Counted from the stretch's first letter, positions 38,801-62,894 are shown. The stretch is 64,000 bases of DNA from an uncultured Candidatus Bathyarchaeia archaeon (GCA_964623205.1 CAZUQX010000006.1:45354-109353), one strand, 5' to 3'. Notes: generated from the letters alone by a model not told the origin. Translations and numbers: made by a program.

Positions 38801-38921
38801 ATATCTCTCTATCTCTATAAATACACAAGTAAGTATATAAGCTTTCCCCTATATCTCCACAAACCTAAAACTTTATATGTGGATAGCTATACAAGTGTTA
38901 ATGGTGATAGATTTGGGAAAG

Positions 38922-39077
38922 ATGAATATAGTGCTAAGTGATGAATTGGAAGAAAAATTCCGAAAAGTTGTCTTTCAAAGAAAAGGAATGAAAAAAGGCA
39001 ACATCAGCAAAGCATTGGAAGAAGCAATTAAACAATGGATGGACTATTTCCCATCAGAAAAATGCAAGAGGGAATAA
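38922..39077 (+). CDS. Ribbon-helix-helix (CopG-like) small protein, IS passenger
   Basis: 'MNIVLSDELEEKFRKVV...KGNISKALEEAIKQWM' fits a beta-strand plus two helices. I take the internal ATG at 38922 as the start. Confidence 0.5.
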   Translation: MNIVLSDELEEKFRKVVFQRKGMKKGNISKALEEAIKQWMDYFPSEKCKRE

Positions 39078-39078
39078 T

Positions 39079-39570
39079 GTGAAAAACAATGGTAAAGAGA
39101 TTAAACCTGAGGCGACCAAATCAGGCACATCCCAACAACAAGAGAACACTCTCTTTTCTGCAAAAGAAGTTAAGGTGATAGTAAAAGATTTTGTAGCAGC
39201 TTTTATTTCTGGGCAAGTTAAAATCAACTTTCCTGATTCAAAAAGCATTTTTGATTTGCGCAAAGAAAAAGGAGAAAAAACGACTTCGGAAGAGGCATGT
39301 AAGCAAATGTTAGAAATTAAGACATATTTTCTTAAAAATGTTGGAATATGTGCCGGAACTACGAAGGCTACTCCAGAGGAACAGGAAAAGGCTCTTAATG
39401 AGGTGTTTTCAGATTTAATCGCATATCGTATCAGTAATCGAATAGATGGTGTCTTTATTGAATATGCATTGGAAGCTAGAATAAAGAGACTTGAAGAGGG
39501 CATAGATAAAGTAAACAATCTCGTAAAGGAAATTGTCGAGTGGATTATGAACCAAGTTGTTGACAAATAG
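39079..39570 (+). CDS. Hypothetical protein, IS passenger
   Basis: The GTG start lies 1 nt after the previous stop. The composition is K/E-rich and looks like a real protein. The antisense ORF 39054-39599 is S/L/F-rich and was rejected. Confidence 0.5.
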   Translation: MKNNGKEIKPEATKSGTSQQQENTLFSAKEVKVIVKDFVAAFISGQVKINFPDSKSIFDLRKEKGEKTTSEEACKQMLEIKTYFLKNVGICAGTTKATPEEQEKALNEVFSDLIAYRISNRIDGVFIEYALEARIKRLEEGIDKVNNLVKEIVEWIMNQVVDK

Positions 39571-39829
39571 ACTCTTTTGTCCAGAATGCAAATCTCCATT
39601 AACCCGTTATACTCGTGGAGATTATATAGAAAAAATCTGCTGGAACTGTGGGTACTATATATCTAATTCCCCAGCCTATCAGTCCAATCCAGAAATGTTC
39701 AGAAACCTAGTTCGAGATAATCCGACAAAATTTTTAAAAAAATTTCTTATCCGACGGAAAAAACCATATTTTAAATCCGACGCAGACGAAACAGTTCCCT
39801 GTGGAGGGTTCTGTAAAGTCTTCGGCTGA
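39557..39829 (+). CDS. Small zinc-ribbon protein, IS passenger; its 3' end reads through the right TIR
   Basis: 'CPECKSPL...CWNCGYY'. The ORF continues across the TIR and TSD to a stop at 39829. Confidence 0.4.
   Translation: MLTNRLFCPECKSPLTRYTRGDYIEKICWNCGYYISNSPAYQSNPEMFRNLVRDNPTKFLKKFLIRRKKPYFKSDADETVPCGGFCKVFG
39748..39798. repeat. Right terminal inverted repeat of the IS
   Basis: This is the reverse complement of the left TIR, ending ...AATCCGACGCAGACGAAACAGTTCC. Confidence 0.85.
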
Positions 39830-40046
39830 CGGGAATTCCTGTGAAAATCGGTTCATTGAAAATTTTTGTAAAAAAGGACTTAACAGAATCCGTTAGTAAC
39901 AAGGGTCATAATTACAAACAGAAATGTACATTCAATGGTTAAAACAAAAATAGTCAATTTGTTGTCTGAAAAACTTTTTCCAAAAATAATGTGCGGTTTT
40001 TGGATTAAATCTCTCCAGAATATCCTAAAAGTTTTCCAGATGTATC

Positions 40047-40054
40047 TGCGCGCA
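40047..40054. repeat. Intergenic alternating-GC palindrome
   Basis: TGCGCGCA lies about 25 nt downstream of the minus-strand gene that ends at 40078. Confidence 0.7.
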
Positions 40055-40077
40055 TAAAAATTTAAGTGAATGGGAAT

Positions 40078-40719
40078 TCAGATCAGGACCTCGGTTATCG
40101 GTTTAAGTAATTTTTTGAAATATTTTTTCCAAGCTAATTGCAGTTGAGCCTCTGTCTCATTAACCGGCTGTTCTACTAGAGGTAACTTTCCCTTGATGCT
40201 TGTTCCGGCTACCGCTGCTAAGTCGAACGGATCAAAATCATACTTTTTAGCCAAGTGTTCTAGTCTAAACTGTCTAAGGTCCTTTGCCCGAATCTCCCTA
40301 CCTAATAAAGGAGACAAGTTTTCACGAATTATCTTATTTATCGTTACGCGAGTCAAATCAAACTCCAATTTCTTATTTCTTAGTTTGCGTTTCGCCAGAT
40401 CGCGGGTCCATGGTTCAAAACTTGGATGGGTAGGCAAAGCAATTATCTTGTAAGAAGGAAAACTTTGGCGTCTCATTGCAAGAGCTAGAGCGATGAGTAG
40501 AACGTCTTGCTTTTTTTTGAATTTGGAAAGCCAAGACCTCATAAATATTCCATAGGGTTTTGTGGTTTGGTTCTGCAGCTCTGATGGTGTAGTTCTTGTG
40601 CATATCTCGCTAGGTCTAGCAGCTGTTAAATACAACAATTTAATAAGCTCCCCATCGCGTAGACCCAACACATGATCAACCGCCTCCCGAAACCTACAGA
40701 AATCAACAGCTTTAACCAT
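40078..40719 (-). CDS. Divergent tyrosine-recombinase-like (integrase catalytic-domain-like) protein
   Basis: 'LLYLTAARPSEI' resembles integrase box I (Arg). 'DLRQFRLEHLA' resembles a degenerate H-x-L-R-H. The canonical GH...Y region is not clear. Confidence 0.4.
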   Translation of the reverse strand: MVKAVDFCRFREAVDHVLGLRDGELIKLLYLTAARPSEICTRTTPSELQNQTTKPYGIFMRSWLSKFKKKQDVLLIALALAMRRQSFPSYKIIALPTHPSFEPWTRDLAKRKLRNKKLEFDLTRVTINKIIRENLSPLLGREIRAKDLRQFRLEHLAKKYDFDPFDLAAVAGTSIKGKLPLVEQPVNETEAQLQLAWKKYFKKLLKPITEVLI

Positions 40720-41473
40720 CTCCTGCCCCTTAGCCTATTCTTTTTTCCTTATTGATAAATATTTGCCAGTTAGATACTGACTGGCATTTCCTTATCATTT
40801 ATCGAGAAGAAAAGCCCAAAATGGAGAGAACTCGAGTATATAACTAAGTATCTATAAAGGGAGGGAAACGTTGTCTCTAAGCCAATTTTCATGGAAACCC
40901 AGAGAAAAATAAGCTACAAGGTCATCTATTGATGTAGATAGGCCTTCAGGTTTGTTGGTCTATCCCCTTATCTTTAATAATTAAATTGATATTGAAAGAC
41001 CTATAGTTTAGGCAGGGGTTTAGGTTAGGCTTCTGTTGTAAAAAGAGTGAGATGAAGTCTTTATGCAATAGAACTAGTGTGGCAAAGTAGATAGGTGCAA
41101 GTCTAGGATGTTTTTTTGATCTAGTTGAAAGGTAACTCTTCTTAGTTGGATTGTCCATTGAAAAAGATAGTGTTTGAATGGTTGCGCGTGTTGTTTGTAA
41201 AATAGTTAGGAAAGAATAGAGCATCTTTCTGTGCTTCCACAGGTAAGGCACCAACCGTTAGTTAGATCGTTTGAAATGCTGTAGTATGGGTATGTCCCGA
41301 GGTTAAACGCAAATAATTGTTTGATGGTGTGAACTTCTCCTTTTTGGTGAAGATTGTTTGAAGAAATTTGAAGCCGTGGAGAATGTTTCAATTAGAATAA
41401 GCTTATGACCGTGCGGTTCTCATTATAGTTACTTAGAAAATGAGCTGACCAGTGGGTATATCTAGACCTGAAA

Positions 41474-42820
41474 TCACTCCACGCGCTCCAACTCGAACTT
41501 CAAAGCTTTTCGTTTCTTTTTTATGCCTTTCTTTTGGTCAAGTTTTTTCTTGGCTTTGAACAATGCTTTCACGACATCCGGTTCCCGCTTGGTGAAGAGA
41601 AAGACCCCCTTAGTACGAGTTTTAGCTCCTGTCATTTCCATGCCGTATGCATGTAGATCTTCCTTCTCTACAGATTTCATGAGATCTAAAAAGGGGTCCA
41701 GTTTTTTCTGCATCTCATTTAACTGCGTTTTCACTTCATTGATTTCCTTGTCTCTATCCATCAATTTCTTCTGTGCCTCATCCAGTTCTTCTCTAAGATC
41801 TCTGATTTGCCCTACAGTTTCGCTTGAGGTTTTGGTTTCGATACTGAGATGAGGAGCTGCCAATTCTGCATACTGTTTTCTGTGGTGTTCTGGATCCATG
41901 GCTCGGTAGTGATCCTGAACTCCGACTTTGTGTCCCATCCAGAACTCGGAGAACTCTTCTCCTGCATTATGGGCATACTTCTCGAAGAATTTTCTGAGAC
42001 TGTAAAGCCTTAATTCGCTTGGCTTGCCTTCCCGAACTTCAAACTCTAATACTCCGGTTTTTTTAAGTTTTCTTGCAGTCTTATTGAATTGAGATGAAAA
42101 GGCTGCAGTTTTCAATGGAGTGTTTTTGGACCCTGATCTCACGAAGAGGTAACTGTCTCGAGTGACATTTCTGGTTTTTAAGTAGGACTTCAAATTTTGA
42201 ATGGCTTCTAAGCCAATGAAGGAAAAGTAACTATGGTATCTTCCCTTGGCTATTTCACGTGGAACATCAATTTTAACAGGACTTTCTTCCATCAAGAGCC
42301 TTTGATATTCAATATGCTTGATCTGCAACCTGCACAAGGTAACAGGTCTGAGTCCACTCTGAGCCATTACAGCATAGAATGCTCGGTCCTTTGGCAGAGA
42401 GATACTCATGATAGCAGAGATCTCTTCTCGCCTGATATCACGATTATGATACTCGAAATGTCCCTGGGCTGTTGGGATAAAACCGATGTCTATTCTGTTA
42501 TGCTTATAAAAGCTCTGCGGCACCCCCACCATGCTTCTGATTGTGCTGTCAGCTAAGCCCCTTTCTCTCAATGAGATTATCCACTCTTTAATCTCGTCTG
42601 CAATCTTGTCCCTGAATTTTCGAAGTTCATTAAAATCCTGTATGCCCTTATACTCGGCTAAAATTTCCTCTGCAGTCCTGCCAATAAACTTGAGGTATAG
42701 GTCAATGCACCGACGATAGTTGACTTCCGTGGCTTTAGACCCGCTGCCCGAATAGGCTACACTAATCAGCCATTTTTCGATCGGATCATGCTTTAGTTGC
42801 GTCAAATCGTCCTGACCCAC
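41474..42820 (-). CDS. Tyrosine recombinase / phage-type integrase with C-terminal coiled-coil extension
   Basis: 'SGLRPVTLCRLQIKHI' (Arg), 'LYSLRKFFEKYA' and 'FWMGHKVGVQDHYRA' (His/Tyr region). The C-terminal tail is K/E-rich. Confidence 0.75.
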   Translation of the reverse strand: MGQDDLTQLKHDPIEKWLISVAYSGSGSKATEVNYRRCIDLYLKFIGRTAEEILAEYKGIQDFNELRKFRDKIADEIKEWIISLRERGLADSTIRSMVGVPQSFYKHNRIDIGFIPTAQGHFEYHNRDIRREEISAIMSISLPKDRAFYAVMAQSGLRPVTLCRLQIKHIEYQRLLMEESPVKIDVPREIAKGRYHSYFSFIGLEAIQNLKSYLKTRNVTRDSYLFVRSGSKNTPLKTAAFSSQFNKTARKLKKTGVLEFEVREGKPSELRLYSLRKFFEKYAHNAGEEFSEFWMGHKVGVQDHYRAMDPEHHRKQYAELAAPHLSIETKTSSETVGQIRDLREELDEAQKKLMDRDKEINEVKTQLNEMQKKLDPFLDLMKSVEKEDLHAYGMEMTGAKTRTKGVFLFTKREPDVVKALFKAKKKLDQKKGIKKKRKALKFELERVE

Positions 42821-43659: not shown

Positions 43660-44430
43660 CTAATCGTCAATGGGATACTGTGGCGAGTCCAGGGCTGTGA
43701 TCCACAATATTTCAAAATAATCTTGGAGTGCTTCTACTAAAGCGGTGTTGTTTGACCATAAAACAGAAGCTGATTTCATAGCCAATGATGGCGTGGCGTT
43801 CATGTACAAGTCTTTCCTATCATATATTCCCATGCGAAATCTGGGAACAGTTGGAACATATCTGACATGGATGGAGAAATTTTTCTGCACACGCAAGCAC
43901 GCGCGTGCTGATTGCTCGTCTTCAAGTTTATCAAGGATTACCCGTATTTTCACACCTCTCCCCAAGGCTTCTTTGAATAATTTCTCTTGATTAATCAGCC
44001 AAGGACAAAAATTACTGCTTGAAGAAATATAATCAATGCTCTTTTGAGCGTTCTCAGTTGCCCTTACTGCACAGGTGACTAATGCTTCTTTTCCGGAAAG
44101 CAAAGAGAAATGAGCCGCCTCTTGCTGAACTGTCGGTTTTCCGCTATCCGCGAGATTTTGGATTATTTCTTTTGTTAGCGCCCGCAATTCGTTAGTTTCT
44201 TCAACTTTCCTTTCCAGCAAAATGGATAACCCTTCATCTATTGGGATTGCTCTGAAGCTAACTGGCCTAGAGATTATTTTTTCAACCAAACCCAATTTTT
44301 GAAGACTGTCTGCTAACCTGTAGATATCCTGCCTAGAAACCTTTGAAACTTTTGATATTGCATTTACCGTGGAAATCCCTGATTGAACAAGGGTGAGGTA
44401 AACTCTAGCTTGGCAAGAAGTAAGTCCCAA
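43660..44430 (-). CDS. TrmB-family transcriptional regulator
   Basis: 'LGLTSCQARVYLTLVQSGISTVNAISKVSKVSRQDIYRLADSLQKLGLV' is a TrmB wHTH. The C-terminus 'YFEILWITALDSPQYPIDD' parallels that of the protein at 62070-62894. See the finding on the start codon. Confidence 0.8.
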   Translation of the reverse strand: MGLTSCQARVYLTLVQSGISTVNAISKVSKVSRQDIYRLADSLQKLGLVEKIISRPVSFRAIPIDEGLSILLERKVEETNELRALTKEIIQNLADSGKPTVQQEAAHFSLLSGKEALVTCAVRATENAQKSIDYISSSSNFCPWLINQEKLFKEALGRGVKIRVILDKLEDEQSARACLRVQKNFSIHVRYVPTVPRFRMGIYDRKDLYMNATPSLAMKSASVLWSNNTALVEALQDYFEILWITALDSPQYPIDD

Positions 44431-45353: not shown

Positions 45354-46049
45354 TTAAAGCCGTTTGCAAATATATTCACAGTATGGGGTAGCGTTCGCCA
45401 TACACTTCGTCCGGATAATTTTCATCTTTCCCCTAGTAACATTAGCAAGTCCTTCATGAACGCCTTCGTGAAACACGTCACAGATTATTTCTGGCCACAT
45501 TTTCGCTAGTTCAAAGAGAACACAATTGTGGACACGATAAACTATCTTATCGCTGTCGATCTCCATGATTTCTGGCTCATAACCAGATTCTTCAAGATAT
45601 TTTGCAATATAAAAATCTTTGATATCCTTCAATGACCACGTTTTCAGTTGGTTTTCTAATTCTATTTGCTTAAATAAGCGCTCGCCGCTTTCAACTCCAA
45701 GCTTCCTATACGTTTCTTTAATTAGGTCTAATTCAAGCGGGGATTGCTGGATTGCTTTCATTAACAATTTGGAGAATTCGAGATAGTTGCGTTTGGGGTA
45801 TCCGACTTGGTGTCCGCTTTTGGAGAGCTCATAGTAGCTTTTTGGTCTTCCTCCGGTTCCCATTCTTCTTTCTTTTAATTTGATGAATCCTGCTCTCTCT
45901 AGGGTGTGTATGTGTTGGCGAATGGAGGTGGGTTGAAGACCTAGGAGGTCCGAAATCTCTTGGATAGTTAAGGATTTCCTCAGTAATAGCTTTAAGATTT
46001 CGAGACGGTTTTTGTTTGCTAGAGCTTGGTATTCTATTATTTGGTTCAT
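45354..46049 (-). CDS. ArsR-type wHTH regulator with a Cys-containing C-terminal sensor-like domain
   Basis: 'ALANKNRLEILKLLLRKSLTIQEISDLLGLQPTSIRQHIHTLERAGFI'. The C-terminal part, '...CDVFHEG...CMANATPYCEYICKR', is unassigned. Confidence 0.7.
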   Translation of the reverse strand: MNQIIEYQALANKNRLEILKLLLRKSLTIQEISDLLGLQPTSIRQHIHTLERAGFIKLKERRMGTGGRPKSYYELSKSGHQVGYPKRNYLEFSKLLMKAIQQSPLELDLIKETYRKLGVESGERLFKQIELENQLKTWSLKDIKDFYIAKYLEESGYEPEIMEIDSDKIVYRVHNCVLFELAKMWPEIICDVFHEGVHEGLANVTRGKMKIIRTKCMANATPYCEYICKRL

Positions 46050-46390: not shown

Positions 46391-49300
46391 TTGGAAGAGA
46401 GATACTGGAAGCTGTTTGATGAGGCGCTAGATGCTATTTTTGTGGTTGATGCTGAAACAGGGATTTTGGTTGATTGTAACCGTGCAGCAACAAAATTGGT
46501 TGGTAGAAAGAAGTCAGAGATAATTGGTAGGCATCAGCGTACTCTTCATCCTCAAAAAGGAACCAAGGATGGTTTCACCAGAGGTTTCAAAAAGCTTCGT
46601 GACGAAGATCCATCACAGGTTCTTGAGGCACAGGTCATTACCAAAAACGGAGAAATCAGAGAAGTTGCGATCAAAGCTAGTGTCTTCGAACTTGAAGGAA
46701 AGAGATTTCTACAGGGGACATTCCGGGACATCACTGAACGCAAAAAAGCAGAAGAGAAACTTAGAGAATCTGAAGAGAAGTATAGTAACTTAGTTGAGAA
46801 CTCCCAAGATTCCATTGCGATAGTGGATTTTATGGGGAATGGTTTGTTTGCCAACGAAACAACAGAAAGGTTAACGGGTTATACACCGGCAGAGGGGAAG
46901 GGAATGAACATAAGAGCGCTCATTCCCAAGAAGTTATGGCCAAAGACTGCCGCGCTGCTACTTAAAGCGAGAAGTGGAAAGCCAATCCCCTTTTTTGAGT
47001 ATGAGTTGAAGAGGAAAGACGGAACAGTTGTTCCAGTTGAGACTGGAGGTCAGGCGATCTTCAAAGATGGGAAACCTGTGGCTGTACAAATCATAACCAG
47101 AGATATTACAGAACATAAGAAGGCAGAAGAATCTATTCGGATATCAGAGGAAAAATTCAGGAAGATTTTTGAGAACGCAAGTGATTGCATAGTATATTTG
47201 GATAAGTCAGGCAGAATTCTTGATGCAAATAGAAAGGCTTTGCAGGTTTTTGGTGGATCTAGAGAAGAAGCACTAGGGAAGCACTTCACCAAATTGGCAA
47301 TAATCTCTCTTGAAGAGGTCCCGACACTCCTGAGGAACTTTGAAAACATTCTTTCTGGAAAAAAAGTTACTCTAGATGTAACCATCAAGAACAAAAAGGG
47401 CCAAAAGATACCGCTAGAATGTTCAGCTTCTGTTACTAAAATGGGTAACACATCCACGATAACAGTCATTGCAAGAGATGTCACCGAACGTAAAAGAGCG
47501 GAAAAAGCTCTTGCAGAGAGTGAGTTGCAGTATCGGAGTCTTGTTGAAAATGTGGGTGCAGGGGTAGCTATAACAGACTTGGAAGGCAGATTTGTTTTTG
47601 TCAATAGGGCTCTCTGTAAAATGATTGGTTACTCTAAAGAGGAAATGGTTGGCAAACCCTTCGCTGACTTTCTTCATCCAGAAGATAGGAAATGGATACA
47701 ACAGATATTTTTGGAGAGTTGGAAAAACCCTGGCCGAACACTTGCAATTGAATTTCGTGTGATACATAAGAGGGATCACGTTATCCACATGTATTCCTGC
47801 CCAACCGCGACTATTGATAACAACAAAATCGTTGGATTCAACGCTATCATCTCAGACATCACAGAACGCAAAAATGCAGAGGAGGCTCTCAGGAAGAGAG
47901 AAAGTGATTTACGTAGGGCTCAGCAGATTGCTCGCTTCGGAAGCTGGGTTTTTGATCTGAAGACTGATCGTGTAGAATTTTCTGATGAGATATTCAATAT
48001 CCTTGGAATAACAAAAGAACAGTTCAACGGTACACTTGAGTGTGCCATCAACCTCGTCAAACCTGAAGACCGAACGAGAGTGCAGAAGTGCTATGAAGAC
48101 TTAGTAATTCGACACAAACCCGTGTCAATGGAGTACTCGATTATACGTCCAGATGGCTCTGTGCGCCATCTTTGGGGAAACGGTGAAGTTGAGTTTGATA
48201 AAAAGGGCGATCTACGATACATAATCGGCACGGTGCGGGACATCACAGAGCGCAAGAAAGCAGAGGAAGCGGCGGAGAAAGAGCGGCAGGAGCTTGACCG
48301 AATTATTGATTCTTCGCCAATCATAATTTTCTACAAAGATAACGAAGGAAAATTCTTACGCGTTAATCAAGCGTTTGCTGAAGCGCTCGATTTAAGTAAA
48401 GAAGAATTTTTGGGAAAAACAGTTTTTGACTTCTATTCTCCCAAGATTGCACAAAGCATGACAAAAGACGACACAGAGGTTTTTGAGTCAGGGCGTCCCA
48501 AACTTGGCATAATAGAGCAGTATGAATCCGCAAGGGGTATTAGATGGGTTCAGACAGATAAGATTCCTATAGTTAAAGAAAACGGCAGTGTAATCGGTCT
48601 CGTAGGCTTTGCACAAGACATTACGGAACGCAAGAAAATAGAAAATAGATTGAGGATAAGCGAGTTTAAGTTTCGCACGGTCGCGGATTTTACCTATGAT
48701 TGGGAATATTGGCTGGCCCCTGATGGTACTTTCGTTTATATGTCTCCTTCATGCGAGAGAATAACTGGATACAAGCCTAAAAAGTTTATTAAAAACCCGA
48801 GACTGCTACAACAGATAGCCAATCCCGAAGACGCAGCAGCCGTTGACGCCCATTTTGACTTGTTCAACTCAGAAGAAGTGAATGAACTTGAATTTCGAAT
48901 CAAACATCGAAATGGCGAAACCCGCTGGGTTCACCATCTTTGCCAGCCCGTTTTTAATCATGAGGGCAAGTTTTTGGGACGGCGAGCCTCAAACCGAGAC
49001 ATAACTGAACAAAAAAAAGCTGAAAAAGAAAAAACTAATTTGCTGCATGAACTGGGCGACTACGTCAACAAACTTGGTTGCCTTTACGAAATCTCAAAAC
49101 TTGCTGAGGATCCAAACATCTCGCTAACAAAATTTCTTACACAAACAGCTAATCTGCTACCTTTGGCATGGCAATGGCCAGCCATTACACGCGCAAGAAT
49201 CGTCTGGAAAAAAGATGAATACAAATCACGAGACTTCAATGAAAGTAAGTGGAAACTAGAATCTAAAATCAAGATACAAGGAAAAAATGTTGGAAGCGTT

Positions 49301-50197
49301 CAAATATATTACCTAGAAGAAAAGCCAATGTCTGATGAAGGCCCATTTCGCATGGAAGAGAGGGAATTAATGGATGTTGTCGCAGAAAGGCTTGGAAAAA
49401 CGATTGAACGCCACGAACTGAATGAAACCATCAGGAAATACTCTGAACACTTAGAAGAGTTGGTTAGAGCAAGAACCAAGAAACTTGTGAAGACCCAGAA
49501 ACAACTCTTCAGGTCTGAGAAACTGGCTGCTATGGGCGAATTATCTGCTATGGTGGGACACGACCTGAGGACTCCCATGCAATCAATAATGGTTACCTCA
49601 AGCTACCTCAACGAAATAATCCCCCAATTAAGCGATTCAAAACTAAATCGCGAAAAAGCAATTGAAGTACTTAAACATCTCAATGATTCAGTGCAATACG
49701 CAGACCAAATAATCATGGACATGCAAGAGTTTTCGCCACGCAGAAAACCAAAAATCCACAAAATTAGTTTAAACACAACAATCAAAAAAGTTATTGCACA
49801 AACTAAAGTACCCAAAAAAACATTAATTATAACTGAGCTAGCCCGCCTTCCACGAGTAGAAACAGATAAGGAAATGATACAGAGAGTTTTCACGAACTTA
49901 ATCACAAACGCAATACAAGCAATGGATGAAAAAGGAACGCTTACAATTTCAACCAAAAAAACGGACAAATCCGTTGAAATAAGTTTCAAAGACACAGGCT
50001 CTGGCATCCCAAAAGAACACCTCAAAAAAATCTTCTCAGCACCATTCACCACAAAAACAAAAGGCATGGGCTTCGGTTTACTCATTTGCAAGAACTTCGT
50101 TAAGATTCTTGGCGGCAACATCATAGTAAAAAGTAAAAAAGGAAAAGGATCAACATTCAAGGTTAAATTGCCCATTCGCCAGAAGGAGAAGAGGTAA
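46391..50197 (+). CDS. Multi-PAS sensor histidine kinase (7 PAS/PAC modules + GAF-like + HisKA + HATPase_c)
   Basis: There are seven modules, each ending in '(R/S/Q)D(I/V)TE(R/H/Q)KxxE'. The H-box is 'MVGHDLRTPM'. The N and G boxes are 'NLITNAIQAM', 'DTGSGIP' and 'GMGFGL'. Confidence 0.9.
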   Translation: MEERYWKLFDEALDAIFVVDAETGILVDCNRAATKLVGRKKSEIIGRHQRTLHPQKGTKDGFTRGFKKLRDEDPSQVLEAQVITKNGEIREVAIKASVFELEGKRFLQGTFRDITERKKAEEKLRESEEKYSNLVENSQDSIAIVDFMGNGLFANETTERLTGYTPAEGKGMNIRALIPKKLWPKTAALLLKARSGKPIPFFEYELKRKDGTVVPVETGGQAIFKDGKPVAVQIITRDITEHKKAEESIRISEEKFRKIFENASDCIVYLDKSGRILDANRKALQVFGGSREEALGKHFTKLAIISLEEVPTLLRNFENILSGKKVTLDVTIKNKKGQKIPLECSASVTKMGNTSTITVIARDVTERKRAEKALAESELQYRSLVENVGAGVAITDLEGRFVFVNRALCKMIGYSKEEMVGKPFADFLHPEDRKWIQQIFLESWKNPGRTLAIEFRVIHKRDHVIHMYSCPTATIDNNKIVGFNAIISDITERKNAEEALRKRESDLRRAQQIARFGSWVFDLKTDRVEFSDEIFNILGITKEQFNGTLECAINLVKPEDRTRVQKCYEDLVIRHKPVSMEYSIIRPDGSVRHLWGNGEVEFDKKGDLRYIIGTVRDITERKKAEEAAEKERQELDRIIDSSPIIIFYKDNEGKFLRVNQAFAEALDLSKEEFLGKTVFDFYSPKIAQSMTKDDTEVFESGRPKLGIIEQYESARGIRWVQTDKIPIVKENGSVIGLVGFAQDITERKKIENRLRISEFKFRTVADFTYDWEYWLAPDGTFVYMSPSCERITGYKPKKFIKNPRLLQQIANPEDAAAVDAHFDLFNSEEVNELEFRIKHRNGETRWVHHLCQPVFNHEGKFLGRRASNRDITEQKKAEKEKTNLLHELGDYVNKLGCLYEISKLAEDPNISLTKFLTQTANLLPLAWQWPAITRARIVWKKDEYKSRDFNESKWKLESKIKIQGKNVGSVQIYYLEEKPMSDEGPFRMEERELMDVVAERLGKTIERHELNETIRKYSEHLEELVRARTKKLVKTQKQLFRSEKLAAMGELSAMVGHDLRTPMQSIMVTSSYLNEIIPQLSDSKLNREKAIEVLKHLNDSVQYADQIIMDMQEFSPRRKPKIHKISLNTTIKKVIAQTKVPKKTLIITELARLPRVETDKEMIQRVFTNLITNAIQAMDEKGTLTISTKKTDKSVEISFKDTGSGIPKEHLKKIFSAPFTTKTKGMGFGLLICKNFVKILGGNIIVKSKKGKGSTFKVKLPIRQKEKR

Positions 50198-50203
50198 TAA
50201 CCG

Positions 50204-50773
50204 ATGAAAGACAAAACCAGCATCCTAATAGTAGAGGACGACCCAAGCTTGCGAAAAGTTTGGAAAGTCTTCTTTGAAAATAAAGGATATATTGTTGAAA
50301 CTGCAGAAAACGGAAAAAATGCAATCCAAAAATCAATGCTCAAATTTTATAATGTCGCACTTATAGACATCAAATTGGGAGACATTGAAGGCACAGAAGT
50401 ACTTACAAGCATGCACAAGAAATGGCCAAAAATGGTGAAAATCATCGTCACCGGATATCCAAGCCTAAGAAATGCTGTTAAATCATTAAACTATGGAGCC
50501 CACGCATATTTAATCAAACCATTCAAACCCGAAAAGCTAATGGCGATTATAGAAGAAAAACTGGAAGAACAAAGCGCTTTAATTCGTGCAGAGGAGGCAC
50601 TTTATCAGCTTACCTCGAGAGGACACTTGGCGATACTAGTAGATCGACTAGAGACAGATAACATCCTCGAAAAAGCAGATGAAACTACAATTCAAGAACT
50701 TTTGTCAGCCTTAAAAAAGGCACTATCAAGTATTGAAGAACAAATCTCAGACCAGAAAAAACCAGAACATTAG
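50204..50773 (+). CDS. Response regulator (REC domain plus a helical tail of about 65 aa; no recognisable output domain)
   Basis: 'ILIVEDDPSL', 'ALIDIKLGDIEG' and 'KIIVTGYPS...AYLIKPF'. The start lies 7 nt after the kinase stop. Confidence 0.9.
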   Translation: MKDKTSILIVEDDPSLRKVWKVFFENKGYIVETAENGKNAIQKSMLKFYNVALIDIKLGDIEGTEVLTSMHKKWPKMVKIIVTGYPSLRNAVKSLNYGAHAYLIKPFKPEKLMAIIEEKLEEQSALIRAEEALYQLTSRGHLAILVDRLETDNILEKADETTIQELLSALKKALSSIEEQISDQKKPEH

Positions 50774-51369: not shown

Positions 51370-51843
51370 TTATGGAAATGGTTGTTCTTTCCATTTTTTT
51401 AGGTTTTCTTCACATTTTTTCTTTATGTTTTGGTCGTTGCTTTTGTCTTTTAGGGCTTCAATGAATTCGATACGCTTGTTTACAGCCCGCACTTCTCCAG
51501 TCTCGTAGTAAAGCCTTCCCTCAATAAAGTCCTTCATCTGCTGAGCCTTCTGAATAATAAACCCAGCATCATCAATAGGGTCATCGAGAGCTTTCACGTT
51601 AAACCATACAGCTACCTCCTGCTCGCGAAGCTGACTTAACCCATCGATCTCACGGATAGTCCTAATATAGGCCCGCAGAAAATCGTAGTACCCCGCAGTT
51701 TTAATCAGTTCTAAGGCTTCCTCAACCTTACCCACAAAATCTGAACTTCCATCCACCCTTAAATCATGCTTGTAGCCCTTCTCGATAAGGGCGCGAGCCT
51801 TCCTCACTTCTTCAACAGTGTAAACTCTCTCTGGAAAATCCAC
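51370..51843 (-). CDS. Hypothetical protein
   Basis: The GTG start lies 7 nt after GGGGTGG. The composition looks coding. I recognise no motif. Confidence 0.5.
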   Translation of the reverse strand: MDFPERVYTVEEVRKARALIEKGYKHDLRVDGSSDFVGKVEEALELIKTAGYYDFLRAYIRTIREIDGLSQLREQEVAVWFNVKALDDPIDDAGFIIQKAQQMKDFIEGRLYYETGEVRAVNKRIEFIEALKDKSNDQNIKKKCEENLKKWKEQPFP

Positions 51844-52241: not shown

Positions 52242-53729
52242 CTAGGCTACAGCGCCAATATCGATCTTATGCTTCTCTCGCCACTCTTTCAGGGGCGTCC
52301 CCATCTTTTCCTCAACTTTCGTTCTGTGAATAGAGTTCATGGTACAGAAGGGAATAATTCTGCCATCAGGCACGGCATAGTGGATACAGCATCTTTGAAC
52401 TCTTTCCAAATCGAAGTTGTAGGGATCCATGAAATGCATAGAGGAGATTAGAAGCATTTTTCTGTGAAGGGTTCCCAAGGATTCGTAGGAACCAGTTCTC
52501 AGAATAGGCAAGAGATATTTTCTCAGCAAACCAAACTTAATATGACGAAGGGCTCCTATCAAGCGTAATTTTGCTTTTCTCTTGTGCCCCTTCGCAGCTT
52601 CCTCGTAGACCTTTTCCATGCTCTTTATGAACTTTTCAACATTGCCGTATCGGTTGATTGGAATCATATCGTCGCCTTCAACAAAGGCGTAGGTTGCCAT
52701 ACCACAGTGAGGGTGGGCGGTAAACTCTACGTATCGTTTATCCCGCAGGGAGCCAACTGCTCGAGATATTGGGACAACACTGGGCACTGGAAAGAAATCG
52801 GAGACCTTTATCTTTCCATCTGTCTGTTCTTCAACGAGCTTCATGAAGTCGGGGATCGTTATTCTCATTTTTTCTCGTTCCTCTTCAGGGATTCTGCCGC
52901 AGATGGATACGGGTTGAACGTTCACGCATCGAATCAAATCGAAGTTCTTGATCGCGAATCGAATAATGTCTCCCAGCTGATGGTCATTGACACCCTTAAC
53001 CAATGTGACGACTAATACTATGCTGAGTCCAGCTTCACGGCAGTTTTCAAGAGCCTTCATTTTAACGTCAAGAAGGTCTACTCCTCGCGTGAACTTGTAG
53101 ACATCCGAGGTTAAACCGTCAAACTGGAGATACACTGTGCTCACTCCAGCCTCAAGCAGACCACGACAATAGTCCACGCTCTGAGCCAGCCGGAGACCGT
53201 TAGTGTTAACCTCTACATGATGAAATCCCAGTTCTTTGGCTTTCCGTACAAGATCGAAAAGGTCTTGCCGAATTGTAGGCTCGCCTCCCGAAAACTGTAA
53301 TGCTGGAGGCGGAACTGGGTCGTTGCTTCTGAGGTTTTCAAGCATCCCAACGATTTCCTCTTTCGATGGTTCATAGACGTATCCTGCTGCTGCTGCGTTG
53401 GCGAAACAGACTGGACATGTCAAGTTGCATCTGTTGGTTATGTCAATGATGGCGAGGGCTGTGTGGGATTTGTGTTGGGGGCAGATGCCGCAGTCGTAGG
53501 GGCAGTCAAGTTTCGTTTCAGTTCGAGGATTTAGAAGTCCATCACCGTCGCACCTGAGTTTTTCAGCTCGTTGATATTGTTCGTAGTCCGACCAGTAAAT
53601 TTCCCTGAACTTTCCGTGTTCCGGGCATTCCTTCTCGATGTAAACCTTGTTGTCTTCTTCGAATATGATGGCGTCTAAGACTTGTAGGCATTCTGGGCAT
53701 ATGCTTTTTGTCTCTTTGATGACTCGCAA
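52242..53729 (-). CDS. Radical SAM protein, MJ0619/Tes (GDGT-MAS / tetraether-lipid synthase)-like
   Basis: The N-terminal rubredoxin-like motif is 'CPEC...CPEHG'. An auxiliary cluster motif 'CPYDCGICPQH' is present. The radical SAM motif is 'CNLTCPVC', followed by 'LQFSGGEPT'. The length is about 495 aa. Confidence 0.65.
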   Translation of the reverse strand: MRVIKETKSICPECLQVLDAIIFEEDNKVYIEKECPEHGKFREIYWSDYEQYQRAEKLRCDGDGLLNPRTETKLDCPYDCGICPQHKSHTALAIIDITNRCNLTCPVCFANAAAAGYVYEPSKEEIVGMLENLRSNDPVPPPALQFSGGEPTIRQDLFDLVRKAKELGFHHVEVNTNGLRLAQSVDYCRGLLEAGVSTVYLQFDGLTSDVYKFTRGVDLLDVKMKALENCREAGLSIVLVVTLVKGVNDHQLGDIIRFAIKNFDLIRCVNVQPVSICGRIPEEEREKMRITIPDFMKLVEEQTDGKIKVSDFFPVPSVVPISRAVGSLRDKRYVEFTAHPHCGMATYAFVEGDDMIPINRYGNVEKFIKSMEKVYEEAAKGHKRKAKLRLIGALRHIKFGLLRKYLLPILRTGSYESLGTLHRKMLLISSMHFMDPYNFDLERVQRCCIHYAVPDGRIIPFCTMNSIHRTKVEEKMGTPLKEWREKHKIDIGAVA

Positions 53730-53814: not shown

Positions 53815-54579
53815 TTGTCTACGCCTGTCAGCGAAGATGCAAAAAAAGCTCTGCGCCAAGTCGGATTAACAGAATATGAGACCAGAGCATATTTGATCTT
53901 GCTTGAACGTGGTGTCATGACAGCCAGCGAGGTTAGCGAATACAGTGGCGTTCCATATTCCAAAGTTTATGAAACACTAAATTCCCTTGAGAGAAAGGGC
54001 TGGATCGAAGCTGAGCGTGGTAGGCCCAGCCGCTATTTTCCAAAAGCTCCTTCTGAAGCGTTGGAAGCTGCTAGACTACGCTTGGAAGACATGGTGAACG
54101 GTTGGAAGCGTGTTGTTTTGGGAGAGCTTCAGCCTCTGTATGAAAGGCGGGAGCTACTGGAGAAGCCTGACATCTGGATTCTGCGAGGCGAATTCAGCAT
54201 CTTGGCAAAGTTGAGGGAGATGCTGGGCGTTGCCCGAAAAGAGTTGATGATAGCTGCGCCTGCTTTTGCGAAAGATTTTGTGGATGCTTTTGCTGCCGTT
54301 TTGGGTCAGCTGCGGGATAGTGGGGTTAGTGTTCAGGTTATGATGGCTGGGGATTGGGATGTTAAGAAAATTGCGGAGGTTGGGGAGACTAGGGTGCGGG
54401 ACGGTTTGTTTGGTGGAGGAGTGATCGTGGATGGCAAGGAGGCACTTCTCTTTCTGGGCGAGGCAGAGACTGGAGGTAGTTATTCAGGTTTGTTAGTTAT
54501 CTGGAGCAAACATATAGGACTAGTGAAATTTGCCCGAGAATACTTCCAACTCCTATGGGACACAGCACAACCAACCTAA
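53815..54579 (+). CDS. TrmB-family transcriptional regulator
   Basis: 'LRQVGLTEYETRAYLILLERGVMTASEVSEYSGVPYSKVYETLNSLERKGWI'. The TTG start sits behind AAGGTGA. Confidence 0.85.
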   Translation: MSTPVSEDAKKALRQVGLTEYETRAYLILLERGVMTASEVSEYSGVPYSKVYETLNSLERKGWIEAERGRPSRYFPKAPSEALEAARLRLEDMVNGWKRVVLGELQPLYERRELLEKPDIWILRGEFSILAKLREMLGVARKELMIAAPAFAKDFVDAFAAVLGQLRDSGVSVQVMMAGDWDVKKIAEVGETRVRDGLFGGGVIVDGKEALLFLGEAETGGSYSGLLVIWSKHIGLVKFAREYFQLLWDTAQPT

Positions 54580-59615: not shown

Positions 59616-61862
59616 TTATTTTCGTTTTTTGAGTATCCAGTAGGCTGCTATGCCGATGACTGCGACGACTGCGACTGCTGCTATGATGGCTACTTCTGTG
59701 CTGATCAAAGGTGCTTCTGGTTCAGGCTCGATTGGCCCTGCTGGTTCTGCTGCTGGTCCCACTCCTACTGCTGTTGCGTCGTATGATGAATAATATGATT
59801 CGGTGCCTGCGAAGGATGCAATTATGGAGTACGCGCCTTCCTCTGTCGGTGTCCACAGTTTGATGTATATGCCGTTCGCGTCGCTTGTTACTGTGCCAAG
59901 GTCAACCCATTCACCATCTGTACGCACAGCCGTCAAATGGACTGGAACTCCTGTTAGGTCGCTTGGGCATGGTTTTTGCATGTATAGGTATTCCATCCAC
60001 TCGCTCATGTATTCATCAGCTATTGCTGGAGTGCCTGCAGCAGGAATACCGAGGCAAGTATCTCCGGGAGACTGGTCGGTTACAGTGCCTTCAATCAATA
60101 CGGTTGATCCCTTTGCAGTAACTTTGGGTGAAGCTGTGACTGTGGTGGCGGTTTTACCCTTGCCGAAGCAGTATAAGGACCCGTCGTACTCATTGGAGCT
60201 TACGAGATAGCCATCCGCGATGAGCTTTTCTGATCCGCCCCCGAAAGCTATACTCCATATTTCATCGCCTGTTTCAGCATTGAGAGCATAGAGCTTATTT
60301 CCTCTCAGGTATGGTTGAGTGGGGGTGTGTTCACTTGTGCCCGCATAGATCTTTCCGTCGGCAATAGCAGGGTAACCCCAAAACGCCCAGTGACCGTAGG
60401 GGGTTTCGGTAGTGTCTCCACTGTAGAACTTCCACACTGTTTTTCCTGTCTCAGCATCGAACGCATAGACGTGTCCATCGTAGCTCAGTCCGTAAACTTT
60501 GCCGTAAGCGACGCCTGTGGCATAAGCCCAGAAACCACCCCAAGGATAGTCTGCAGGCTCACTTTCCCATACCACGGCTCCTGTATAGACATTGTAGGCT
60601 TTGAATGTACGGTGGAAAGCATCAGCCCAGAAAAATTTTTCATATCCAGCTGCTCCGGTACTCATAAATTGGTAGTCTCGTGTTATGTTCCACAGAATTT
60701 CCCCTGTGGTCGCGTTAACAGCGGAACTCCAATACTCCCCAAGATACGCTAAAGTAAGTACGTCTCCTTGAGCCAAGACGCTCATGCGATTCACTGTTGT
60801 GTTCCAAACTATGTTACCTTCAAAGGTCTCGCTGCGCCCGTTTAAATCCCACTTAATTAGATGTCCAATAGGACTGGCCCATGTTCTATCTGTCAACACC
60901 ATGTAAAGGTAATCATCATGAATAATTCCGCCAGGTGAAGCGCCAGAAAACGAAAAGGGTGACGGTATGCCCGTAGTACGCTTCGTCTCTAGTCCTGTTT
61001 CCGCACTATACCGTACAAAATTTCCACCAAGTGCCCATATGTGGGCTTGCCCGGTACCGGGTGGTTTTTGAATATATAGTCTTCCTGAAGCAGGCACAAC
61101 CCATAGCTCTTCTCCAGTACGCAAATCCAAGCAGTGCATCCCGTCCGCTTCAATGTAATAAACTCTTCCAGCCACGATCATTGGAGCAGCGCCTTGACTG
61201 TAACTTAAACTACCAGACTCCCCTCCGATGAGACCTGATATGCCTATCGGCTTTTTCCATACTATGTGGGCACTGTTTGGCGCTTTGCTGTATGGTTGGT
61301 AACAAGAGCTATTTGAATTGCCACGTGTCATGAGCCAGTCTCCTCCTAGCACATTCCATTCTCTGTTTTCTGGGTTTATCGGTCGCTCCCAGTAACCCTC
61401 TGGAAGTTCGACTGCTGGGAATGCGGGGGGCACCATTTCCGTCTGTACGGTGAATTTGAATGGTGGACTATCGGCGCCTTTGTGGTATTCGTCTCCAGCC
61501 CAGCTCAACATGGCACTCCATGTGCCGGTTTGGTCGGGGGTGTACACTACCCAGATCGTTCCGGACGCATAGGAGTCGTAAGGCCCTAGGGTTTCGGTAG
61601 TTCCGGTGGGCTTTGTTATGGTAACATAAAAGTCATGGTAGATAAAATCCCTAGCTTCGTCTGGATGGGGGATAATCCATGCGTTAATCAAAACGTTCTG
61701 ACCAAGCCCTATAGTTTCAGGATTTACATTCATGTAGGCGAAGCTATCTTCCTTCTGCTGAGCAACAGCGGTTGGCAAAGCAACAAATGTAGCAGCAAAT
61801 GTTAACGTTAGAATTAAAGCGATTGTAGTAACCTTTGCTTTATTTGTTGAGTGTTTCATCAT
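59616..61862 (-). CDS. Secreted PQQ-like beta-propeller repeat protein with C-terminal TM anchor
   Basis: A signal peptide is present. Repeats occur of the type 'KLYALNAETGDEIWS', 'HVYAFDAETGKTVWKF' and 'MHCLDLRTGEELWVV'. The C-terminus is 'PEPEAPLISTEVAIIAAVAVVAVIGIAAYWILKKRK'. Confidence 0.8.
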   Translation of the reverse strand: MMKHSTNKAKVTTIALILTLTFAATFVALPTAVAQQKEDSFAYMNVNPETIGLGQNVLINAWIIPHPDEARDFIYHDFYVTITKPTGTTETLGPYDSYASGTIWVVYTPDQTGTWSAMLSWAGDEYHKGADSPPFKFTVQTEMVPPAFPAVELPEGYWERPINPENREWNVLGGDWLMTRGNSNSSCYQPYSKAPNSAHIVWKKPIGISGLIGGESGSLSYSQGAAPMIVAGRVYYIEADGMHCLDLRTGEELWVVPASGRLYIQKPPGTGQAHIWALGGNFVRYSAETGLETKRTTGIPSPFSFSGASPGGIIHDDYLYMVLTDRTWASPIGHLIKWDLNGRSETFEGNIVWNTTVNRMSVLAQGDVLTLAYLGEYWSSAVNATTGEILWNITRDYQFMSTGAAGYEKFFWADAFHRTFKAYNVYTGAVVWESEPADYPWGGFWAYATGVAYGKVYGLSYDGHVYAFDAETGKTVWKFYSGDTTETPYGHWAFWGYPAIADGKIYAGTSEHTPTQPYLRGNKLYALNAETGDEIWSIAFGGGSEKLIADGYLVSSNEYDGSLYCFGKGKTATTVTASPKVTAKGSTVLIEGTVTDQSPGDTCLGIPAAGTPAIADEYMSEWMEYLYMQKPCPSDLTGVPVHLTAVRTDGEWVDLGTVTSDANGIYIKLWTPTEEGAYSIIASFAGTESYYSSYDATAVGVGPAAEPAGPIEPEPEAPLISTEVAIIAAVAVVAVIGIAAYWILKKRK

Positions 61863-61913
61863 TTTCTTTTTTCTCCTTTTGTTGATAACCGTGTTTTAGT
61901 TATTGTTCCTCTT

Positions 61914-62006
61914 AAAGTTTAGCATGTGATAATGATACAGACAAAAAGTTTAGTATGTGATAGTCACACAGACAAAAAGTTTAGCAAGTAATAGTCACAC
62001 AGACAA
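61914..62006. repeat. Three tandem 31-bp direct repeats in a divergent promoter region
   Basis: The units are at 61914-61944, 61945-61975 and 61976-62006. The consensus is AAAGTTTAG(C/T)A(T/A)GT(G/A)ATA(ATGAT/GTCAC)ACAGACAA. Units 2 and 3 carry GT(G/A)A-TAG-TCAC inverted half-sites. A T/A-rich box (TTTTTTATATTAG) follows. Confidence 0.9.
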
Positions 62007-62069
62007 CTTTTTTATATTAGTTATGAGAAACACATCACTAAGGAGACAGGACTATAAGAGGGTGTCTTT

Positions 62070-62894
62070 TTGTTTGAGCAAGAGGCGGTTGAAACGCTGT
62101 GTGGTTTGGGTTTAACGTTGAATGAGGCAAGGGTTTACTTTGCGCTTATTCAATGCGGCGTGTCATCGGCAAAGACTGTTTCAAAGTTTTCAGGCGTTAT
62201 CCGACAAGACGTTTATCGCGTGATGCCGAAGCTGCAGCAGAAGGGGCTGGTTAACCGGGCATTGACGATTCCTGCAGTGTTCGACGCAATTCCCCTTGAA
62301 GATGGCGTCTCAATTTTGATGGAAAAAAGAAGAAAAAGAACAGAGGAGCTGCAGCAAAAAACAGCAGTACTAGTCGATAATCAAAAAAATAACCACCGAA
62401 AATTTTCTGGGGGGGAACTGGAGCCGGAGTTTGTTGTAATTCCCGGTGATGAAGCGTCTATTAAGAGAAAGAAAATGGCGATTGATGCTGAAAGATATGT
62501 AGATAATGTAATTTCTAGGAAGCGTTTTGTGTCTGGGCTCTCCTATTATGGTGAACTGACATTGAAGAGGTTAGAGAGGGGTGTAAGGTACAGGCTGATC
62601 ACAGAGATGCCTGGAGACGGGGAGATTTTGCCGAAGATTTTCCAGGATTTGAGGGAGCATCCACTGTTCAGGTTGAGGTATGTTACAGCGTCGCCTAGGG
62701 CATTTATGTGTGTTATTGACAACCGGGAGGTGCTTTTCAGCGATCCTGCAGCGTCACCTTTGGAGTATACGTGTTTGTGGTCTAAAAACCCAAGTTTGCT
62801 CGCAGTACTCCATGATTACTTTGAGTTAATGTGGATCACGGCAATGGAGACTCCGCACTACAGCGTCGACGATGAGCAGACAGCTCAACTTTGA
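62070..62894 (+). CDS. TrmB-family transcriptional regulator
   Basis: 'LGLTLNEARVYFALIQCGVSSAKTVSKFSGVIRQDVYRVMPKLQQKGLV'. The TTG start lies 5 nt after GAGGGTG. Confidence 0.85.
   Translation: MFEQEAVETLCGLGLTLNEARVYFALIQCGVSSAKTVSKFSGVIRQDVYRVMPKLQQKGLVNRALTIPAVFDAIPLEDGVSILMEKRRKRTEELQQKTAVLVDNQKNNHRKFSGGELEPEFVVIPGDEASIKRKKMAIDAERYVDNVISRKRFVSGLSYYGELTLKRLERGVRYRLITEMPGDGEILPKIFQDLREHPLFRLRYVTASPRAFMCVIDNREVLFSDPAASPLEYTCLWSKNPSLLAVLHDYFELMWITAMETPHYSVDDEQTAQL

Follow-up and report, generated by a model that had tools for sequence, protein, structure and literature searches.

The 64,000-nucleotide stretch of DNA from an uncultured Candidatus Bathyarchaeia archaeon analysed here (GCA_964623205.1, CAZUQX010000006.1:45354-109353; hereafter the window, G+C = 41%) carries at 61914-62006 three head-to-tail copies of a 31-bp unit, placed between a gene for a surface protein with a pyrroloquinoline quinone (PQQ)-type β-propeller and a divergent gene for a TrmB-family regulator. 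Tandem Repeats Finder (TRF) describes this array with a period of 31, 3.0 copies, 88% matches and 0 indels, and its score of 144 is the highest of any tandem repeat in the window, the runner-up scoring 61. A search of the window with the consensus 31-mer (AAAGTTTAGCATGTGATAGTCACACAGACAA), allowing ≤3 mismatches, matched only at 61914, 61945 and 61976, and the same search gave 0 matches in 100 dinucleotide-preserving shuffles, which bears out the three tandem units reported between these genes in a first-pass annotation of the window. Pairwise comparison of the units shows 4, 3 and 5 differences over their 31 positions, and inspection of the sequence on either side of the array revealed no partial fourth unit. 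The identical three units are present in a separate Logan assembly of run SRR14802572, and an assembly artefact is also unlikely because the units differ among themselves. The array had been said to fill the divergent spacer; it spans the interval between two TATA-like boxes, but this amounts to the central 93 nt of a 207-nt intergenic spacer.

The three units, all given on the plus strand, differ in what they retain of a short dyad. Unit 2 (61945-61975; AAAGTTTAGTATGTGATAGTCACACAGACAA) holds the only intact copy, TGTGA-TAG-TCACA at 61956-61968, centred on 61962. Unit 1 (61914-61944; AAAGTTTAGCATGTGATAATGATACAGACAA) retains the left arm TGTG(A) at 61925-61929 and has a degenerate right arm (CACA to GATA), and in unit 3 (61976-62006; AAAGTTTAGCAAGTAATAGTCACACAGACAA) the counterpart of the unit 2 dyad reads GTAATAGTCACA, with the right arm (T)CACA retained at 61995-61999 and the left arm degenerate (TGTG to AGTA). 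GTGATA, first noted in units 1 and 2, is indeed present there (at 61926 and 61957), as are the inverted half-sites noted in units 2 and 3. The unit centres lie at 61931, 61962 and 61993, and the 31-bp period (∼2.95 helical turns) would place them on about the same face of the helix, in line with the three-turn phasing originally proposed. TGTG-N5-CACA occurs once in the window, in unit 2, and the search suggested earlier for the 31-mer and its half-sites, run here within the 64-kb window for the 31-mer, for the dyad and for the right-hand half, returned the array and no additional sites.

Both flanking genes are as first described. On the minus strand, the 748-aa PQQ_2 β-propeller protein (59616-61862; Pfam PQQ_2, E = 2.6e-23) has a signal-peptide-like N-terminus, the propeller, an immunoglobulin-like segment and a C-terminal membrane anchor; it has 776 homologues at E ≤ 1e-30, mostly from Bathyarchaeia and the best of them 48% identical, and its gene is likely the main regulated target. 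PQQ-domain surface proteins are hugely expanded in Bathyarchaeia, with a proposed action on lignin or humics (PMC11697101); this Bathy-6 genomics paper reports the PQQ expansion and does not mention regulators. On the plus strand, the 274-aa TrmB-family regulator (62070-62894; Pfam PF01978) starts at a TTG codon that agrees with the starts of its homologues and is preceded, 5 nt ahead, by a Shine-Dalgarno-like GAGGGTG at 62058-62064.

Promoter-like elements adjoin the array on both sides. The box that had been noted just downstream of it is found at 62008-62020 (plus strand; TTTTTTATATTAG) and would be the TATA box of the regulator gene; its core TTTATATT occupies 62011-62018 and is preceded by GACAAC, resembling a transcription factor B (TFB) recognition element (BRE), at the end of unit 3. 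Boxes of this type (TTTATATT, TTTAAATA) are found 30-70 nt upstream of many window genes, and in orthologous spacers the equivalent box (TTTTTATA or TTTATATA) immediately follows GACAA(C). For the PQQ gene, the putative TATA box is a weak TATA-like sequence at 61909-61916 (TTTAAGAG on the minus strand) whose last bases overlap the start of unit 1. It lies ∼54 nt from the start codon, the TATA-like boxes of other window genes lying at 30-70 nt, and the aligned position in the orthologues reads TTTAAAAG or TTTAATAG on the minus strand. A Shine-Dalgarno-like GGAGA (61872-61876, minus strand) precedes the ATG of the PQQ gene and corresponds to TCTCC/TCACC in the orthologous spacers. At the expected BRE positions, in the 7-9 nt between each box and the nearest dyad arm, are CTAAAC (minus strand) and GACAAC (plus strand), both of which resemble the A-rich pre-TATA context of other window promoters. 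Each 31-bp unit would thus consist of a BRE for the PQQ gene, the dyad, a BRE for the regulator gene and the first bases of the PQQ TATA box. The possibility of pseudo-promoters where the units join (GACAA/AAAGTTTAG) was dropped, as in our own reading the A/T stretch at the junction poorly matches the window TATA consensus.

The adjacent regulator

The regulator contains a PF01978 winged helix-turn-helix (HTH) at residues 12-77 (E = 7.4e-15, over the gathering score), and Pfam returned no match to Regulator_TrmB (PF11495), the C-terminal sugar-binding barrel being absent. A profile built from 15 homologues gives a full-length alignment with TrmBL2 (5bpd/5box, E ∼3e-10), and with TrmB (3qph) an alignment over residues 8-192 only. 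The AlphaFold model, with a predicted local distance difference test (pLDDT) score of 83, comprises a winged HTH, a long helix (76-111) and an α/β domain, and the top Foldseek match is TrmBL2 (E = 3e-15), with TrmB 3qph at 9e-12 and proteins of the phospholipase D (PLD) fold at 1e-7; the long amphipathic dimerisation helix and the PLD-like domain of the TrmB family are both recognisable in the model. Because of the full-length fit to TrmBL2, the partial fit to TrmB and the lack of PF11495, we class the protein as TrmBL2-type, and the modelling indicates a TrmB-family member without a sugar-binding barrel, not a sugar-sensing TrmB.

Y49 of the regulator is invariant in the 15 homologues and aligns with the TrmBL2 tyrosine in the profile alignment, the DNA-contacting tyrosine of the recognition helix being Y50 in both Pyrococcus furiosus TrmB and TrmBL2 (PMC4158304). 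The residue that follows Y49 is Arg in place of Asp. The regulator family has 15 members in a database of 5.8 billion proteins, the best 64% identical, and its genome matches are nearly all from Bathyarchaeia.

The two TrmB-HTH paralogues in the window (43660-44430 and 53815-54579) have no comparable upstream array, as the first-pass annotation had stated. The second of these, which matches both the TrmB HTH and Regulator_TrmB, faces away from the gene for a radical-SAM protein carrying an HMPTM-type zinc ribbon (52242-53729), and no repeat or obvious dyad was seen in the 85-nt spacer between them.

A conserved module in related spacers

Five orthologous loci (L055/L056, L057, L059, L060 and the cut L058), whose regulators are 57-64% identical to that of the window, carry exactly one copy of the unit in the same spacer, and a pattern search found the module once per orthologous locus. 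The element takes the form ...GTAGCATGTGTT(A/G)GTCACACTGACAA... followed by the TATA box, the individual modules being TTTTAAGATGTAGCATGTGTTAGTCACACTGACAACCTTTTTATTG (L059), TTTTAAAATGGAGTTTGTGTTGGTCACACTGACAACTTTTTATGG (L060), TATTAAACCGTAGCATGTGTTGGTCACACTGACAACTTTATATAAAA (L055/L056), TTTTAAAGTGTAGCATGTGTTAGTCACACTGACAAAATTTTTATAAA (L057) and ...TGACAATTTTTTATAG (L058, cut). The core common to the orthologues and the window is TGTG-N5-CACA with BRE-like flanks. In the orthologues this single module sits between two A/T boxes 37-39 bp apart, and the central 13 bp between the BRE positions are invariant at GTG..GTCACA. All three window units differ from the orthologues at unit position 16 (T to A), which extends the dyad to TGTGA-N3-TCACA. 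Unit 2 shows 4-7 differences from the orthologous elements, unit 1 6-11 and unit 3 5-10.

To compare conservation across the locus, the orthologous spacers were aligned with the window spacer collapsed to one unit. The best-conserved 25-column block of the spacer and gene starts is the module, with 21 of its 25 columns invariant as against 43% overall, and its conservation equals that of the HTH-coding DNA. Such conservation at this degree of protein divergence indicates purifying selection on the cis-element, and supports a genuine cis-regulatory role for the unit at this divergent gene pair. Two features of a shared operator in a bidirectional archaeal promoter are found here, namely flanking BRE/TATA-like elements (with transcription start sites predicted near 61885-61890 on the minus strand and 62040 on the plus strand) and conservation of the site above the spacer background.

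The same gene pairing extends well beyond these orthologues. Wherever contigs are long enough to show it, the divergent partner is a PQQ_2 propeller (L002, L009-L011, L013-L015, L018, L021, L026-L029, L042, L056 and L065/L066), and the regulator gene is physically tied to this type of spacer in ∼20 loci, so that a divergent cassette of a TrmBL2-type regulator and a secreted PQQ_2 propeller appears to recur across Bathyarchaeia metagenomes and metagenome-assembled genomes. In the more distant Bathyarchaeia spacers the window module is absent and each has its own dyad beside the PQQ-side A/T box: TGTAAG-N5-CTTACA and AACTGTAA-N7-TTACAGTT in L002 and L061, GGTGGAG-C-CTCCACC in L011, L015 and L021, TAAGTAC-N5-GTACTTA in L009, GGTCG-N5-CGACC in L010 and GGACTG-N7-CAGTCC in L065. 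These dyads are common within sub-clades and switch along with the recognition helix (RQDVYRVMPKLQ, REYVYKIMP(N/Q)LQ or RPDVYR(T/A)LSKL); set against one another, RQDVYRVMPKLQ, REYVYKIMPNLQ and RPDVYRTLSKL each go with different dyads. As the dyad changes where the recognition helix changes, the adjacent TrmB-family protein is the natural candidate binder of the units. The position of the dyad is steadier than its sequence, with 69-75 nt separating its centre from the PQQ start codon at 11 of the 17 loci, and the distance to the regulator start is more variable (58-156 nt). Unit 1 of the window is at 69 nt from the PQQ start, the ancestral distance.

Several related loci merit separate mention. 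Since some relatives of the regulator (35-38% identical) have other divergent partners, the family is not exclusive to PQQ genes: a 619-647 aa protein bearing a BPL_N-like domain takes this place in L007:3991-5934 and L008:3986-5845, and an FkbM-type methyltransferase in L023:4711-5745 and L025:4814-5842. At L021:3296-3484 the regulator beside the PQQ gene is a 62-codon remnant in which a few N-terminal residues are joined, partly out of frame, to the region of the C-terminal LWSNNPSL...W motif. The upstream dyad (GTGGAGCCTCCAC) is intact, which may point to a cassette left without its regulator. At L018:2020-2085, where the regulator is 34% identical, TTTTAGCATGTG lies to the left of the local dyad GTAAGTC-TAAT-GACTTAC and CAAAAAGTTGTCATGCAGACA to its right; these strings resemble the left end of the window repeat and its unit junction, a resemblance that could be chance or reflect shared BRE/TATA promoter constraints.

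Triplication of the module and its possible consequences

Scanning 32 upstream regions and 22 spacers with TRF and for 20-mer direct repeats revealed no array other than that of the window, the 21 related spacers each having one copy or none, and the best 20-mer direct repeat has ≥5 mismatches in the spacers of relatives vs 2 in the window. The array is therefore a lineage-specific triplication of the conserved module, ASYMMETRICALLY decayed, and the triplicated module is probably bound by the regulator. The changes that followed triplication are confined in a particular way. Unit 1 has changed at unit positions 19, 21 and 23 (right arm CACA to GATA) and unit 3 at positions 12 and 15 (left arm TGTG to AGTA), and unit 2 has changed at position 10 only. 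The five changes of the outer units all lie within positions 12-23, at sites invariant in four orthologues and unit 2, and the remaining positions are unchanged; by our own arithmetic, on small numbers, (12/31)^5 is ∼0.009. Units 1 and 3 have each lost the promoter-distal arm, the surviving arms at 61925-61929 and 61995-61999 being the BRE-proximal ones, and the array is symmetric around 61962 as half-site, full site and half-site with centres 31 bp apart. Triplication also put the two promoters 62 bp further apart. Of the operator array envisaged in the first-pass annotation, the conserved cis-element is upheld as a block, but the array comprises one full site and two half-sites and has no equivalent in the 21 related spacers.

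On balance the evidence leans, if only a little, toward the 31-bp unit being an operator-plus-BRE module of a bidirectional promoter, with its dyad bound by the adjacent TrmBL2-type regulator and the array loaded cooperatively. Each module would be laid out around a 13-bp dyad, with one BRE-like end turned toward the PQQ gene and the other (GACAA) toward the regulator gene, and in the single-copy state one regulator dimer would abut both BREs and control both genes together. In the lineage of the window two tandem duplications of the module would have left a middle copy with the full, probably high-affinity, site and outer copies with the BRE-adjacent half-site. The regulator would then occupy unit 2 first, and as its concentration rises, in-phase protein contacts (31 bp, ∼3 turns) would load the weak half-sites of units 1 and 3, the outcome being that the PQQ gene and the regulator's own gene would respond more steeply to its concentration. 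Activation is slightly favoured over repression, because the site is upstream of BRE/TATA and the PQQ TATA box is weak; from sequence alone, occlusion of TFB by the bound regulator is equally possible. The repeat, its conservation as a single-copy module, the conserved gene pairing, the placement relative to the TATA-like boxes and the fold of the regulator are what the analysis shows; the identity of the binder, the cooperativity and the sign of regulation we infer.

The main rival is neutral tandem duplication, in which unit 2 is the sole working operator and units 1 and 3 are decaying by-products of slippage or unequal recombination that add no regulatory property. We consider this possible but rather doubtful. 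Copy number never exceeds one in related spacers, units 1 and 3 carry disruptive changes at otherwise invariant positions, and the units are 10-16% diverged, as unconstrained copies would be. However, all five changes are in the dyad region, with none at the 18 positions that flank it in units 1 and 3, the retained arms are exactly the BRE-proximal ones, and triplication shifted the one complete site by 31 bp from each BRE/TATA pair, a shift that would carry a cost if the site has to adjoin them, as the conserved 69-75 nt geometry may imply.

Several observations weigh against the regulator-bound operator module and its cooperative loading. The dyad occurs only once in 64 kb, so that no regulon is definable, and the nearest relatives in the databases are as distant as 64% (regulator) and 48% (PQQ protein) identity. 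The lack of an array in 21 related spacers means that three copies are not required for the system, and the promoter-adjacent copies are the degenerate ones, which is equally readable as decay of redundant copies. The palindrome alone is no better than chance (shuffle p = 0.94 for the 5+5 dyad of the window); in this test, which set the best inverted repeats of 19 spacers against shuffles, most of the others were individually non-significant too. We consequently take conservation, and not palindromicity, as the evidence for the element. The dyads of distant loci were also partly chosen by eye, and because of this and the non-significance of individual palindromes the argument from dyads rests on recurrence of position, conservation within clades and co-variation with the recognition helix.

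Much of the conserved block may, moreover, be BRE or basal-promoter sequence and not regulator contact. Were the module simply two back-to-back BREs and a spacer, or the site of an unlinked transcription factor, its best-conserved parts should include the flanks GTAGCA and CTGACAA at the expected BRE positions, as they do, and it would fit that clades whose dyads differ have GCTTGTA in common at the BRE position on the PQQ side and that the orthologue dyad arms measure just 4 bp in a non-significant palindrome. Such an explanation is nonetheless unlikely, as the invariant GTG..GTCACA falls in the central 13 bp between the BRE positions, the dyad switches with the recognition helix between clades at a fixed position, and the regulator gene stays linked to the spacer in those ∼20 loci.

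That the tandem repeat lies in a surface-protein promoter, the protein belonging to a family highly expanded in Bathyarchaeia (PMC11697101), might also suggest a contingency locus, where slippage alters repeat number and promoter spacing and so tunes surface-protein expression within populations. This is very improbable: both assemblies have the same three copies with no copy-number variants found there, and the divergence of the units suppresses slippage.

The link to the Thermococcales glycolytic motif (TGM) drawn in the first-pass annotation fares worse still, and the sequence comparison already contradicts the idea that the units are TGM-type operators of a sugar-sensing TrmB/TrmBL1-like regulator. 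GTGATA in units 1 and 2 and the TrmB HTH domain of the regulator are what such a reading would predict, and the TGM regulon of TrmBL1/Tgr likewise pairs an inverted repeat with a TrmB-family regulator, its position relative to BRE/TATA setting the sign of regulation (PMC4158304). Nevertheless, the orthologues have GTGTTA or GTGTTG in place of GTGATA, the arms are GTGA...TCAC with a 3-5 nt spacer, opposite in orientation to the TCAC...GTGA of the TGM (PMC4158304), the regulator is without a sugar-binding barrel, and the target is a PQQ propeller, not a sugar-metabolism gene. The units read TGTGA-N3-TCACA and not TATCAC-N5-GTGATA, and recurrence at many sugar-metabolism promoters was not seen, TGTG-N5-CACA being confined to a single locus in the 64-kb window, unlike a regulon. 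The GTGATA of the units is a lineage-specific coincidence.

A structured RNA, a CRISPR-like array or replication-origin boxes or iterons, suggested at most by tandem repetition and a short inverted repeat within it, can be dismissed, as there are no spacers between units, the element accompanies one particular gene pair as a single copy in many genomes, the window contains no Rfam matches or tRNAs, and the RNA fold of the repeat is no better than that of shuffles (z +0.84).

A bolder version, which we regard as unlikely but worth stating, is that the triplication is an evolved dosage switch, in which the sharpened central dyad would nucleate an oligomer of the TrmBL2-like regulator that extends, in helical phase, over the BRE-adjacent half-sites and makes of a simple shared operator an ultrasensitive bidirectional control of the surface PQQ protein and its own regulator. 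In the same vein, Bathyarchaeia may possess many private cassettes, each joining a PQQ-propeller surface protein to its own TrmBL2-type regulator and a co-evolving operator. If so, the TrmBL2 architecture, known from a nonspecific chromatin protein, would also serve sequence-specific local regulators, and such cassettes would offer a first handle on the control of the expanded PQQ-protein families in uncultured Bathyarchaeia.

Comparison with known systems and neighbouring features

Judged from its sequence, the element resembles known archaeal operators beside BRE/TATA, here set in a divergent promoter and tandemly amplified in one lineage. As such it is a modest variation on ordinary gene control and would be unsurprising to specialists in archaeal transcription. 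What is particular to it is a TrmBL2-type yet apparently local regulator, the recurring PQQ cassette and the triplication of a whole BRE-operator-BRE module.

The closest parallel in site design is TrmB of P. furiosus and Thermococcus litoralis, which binds the trehalose/maltose (TM) and maltodextrin (MD) operators TACT-N3-AGTA and a TACT half-site, the half-site at the P. furiosus MD promoter working at ∼8-fold more TrmB (PMC4158304). Both systems have a winged HTH regulator, a short dyad with a 3-5 nt spacer at or beside BRE/TATA and a regulator gene linked to the target, and the full and half-sites of our array appear to match the use of full and lower-affinity half-sites by TrmB. In contrast to TrmB, the site here is TGTG-N5-CACA, lies upstream of BRE/TATA and not over it, and is repeated in a 31-bp tandem array; the regulator is without the sugar-binding domain and the target is a surface PQQ propeller. 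Sites of the TrmB family upstream of BRE/TATA are associated with activation and those downstream with repression (PMC4158304).

MalR, another TrmB-family protein, has two 8-bp repeats 33 bp apart (PMC4158304), and these too are repeated motifs spaced by ∼3 helical turns upstream of a promoter, with autoregulation proposed (PMC4158304). However, the MalR repeats are short direct repeats ∼100-140 nt upstream and the protein has an effector-binding domain, whereas the array here consists of whole duplicated 31-bp modules abutting the BRE.

Ss-LrpB of Sulfolobus solfataricus binds cooperatively, with wrapping of the DNA, to three 15-bp semi-palindromic boxes set at regular intervals in its own control region (PMC1802622). 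Three regularly spaced, related and unequal sites upstream of the regulator's own gene, for which cooperative filling is expected, are likewise found here, with the integral-turn spacing of phased arrays of this type. A full box per site is present in unit 2 only, and the arrangement is not conserved in the relatives. Ss-LrpB further differs in belonging to the Lrp family and in that its boxes are not a head-to-tail duplication; in our array the central site is the best one, and cooperativity is suggested by analogy.

TrmBL2 itself (P. furiosus PF0496, Thermococcus kodakarensis TK0471) is a chromatin protein that forms a tetramer and binds DNA cooperatively (PMC4877046). The regulator shares with it the winged HTH, the long helix, the PLD-like domain, a length of ∼264-274 aa and the lack of a sugar-binding barrel, and TrmBL2 is its best full-length match by both structure and profile. 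TrmBL2 is abundant and largely sequence-nonspecific, and the regulator, at ∼20% identity, differs in having one divergent target with a lineage-specific conserved dyad; despite the TrmBL2 architecture it appears to act as a local sequence-specific regulator.

The single-copy and three-copy states constitute a natural experiment on how tandem duplication reshapes the control of an archaeal promoter, and the full central site with promoter-proximal half-sites leads to concrete, testable predictions. As Bathyarchaeia have almost no genetics, the operator/regulator pairs also provide defined reagents for heterologous binding studies.

The second-ranked tandem repeat of the window (51380-51420; period 21, 1.9 copies, score 61, GGTTGTTCTTCACATTTTTTTA) lies at the 3′ end of an unannotated open reading frame (ORF; 51370-51843, minus strand) that has no Pfam match. 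The region 37658-42820 is mobile-element-like, with small unannotated ORFs lying between genes for an IS240-type DDE transposase (37658-38800) and a phage-integrase-family protein (41474-42820), both on the minus strand; directly downstream of the orthologous regulator in L055 there is likewise a phage-integrase gene. Finally, 46391-50773 encodes a 1268-aa sensor histidine kinase (∼6-7 PAS domains plus HisKA/HATPase) directly followed by a stand-alone 189-aa receiver-domain protein, and an ArsR/TrmB-like HTH gene at 45354-46049 is divergent from the kinase gene.

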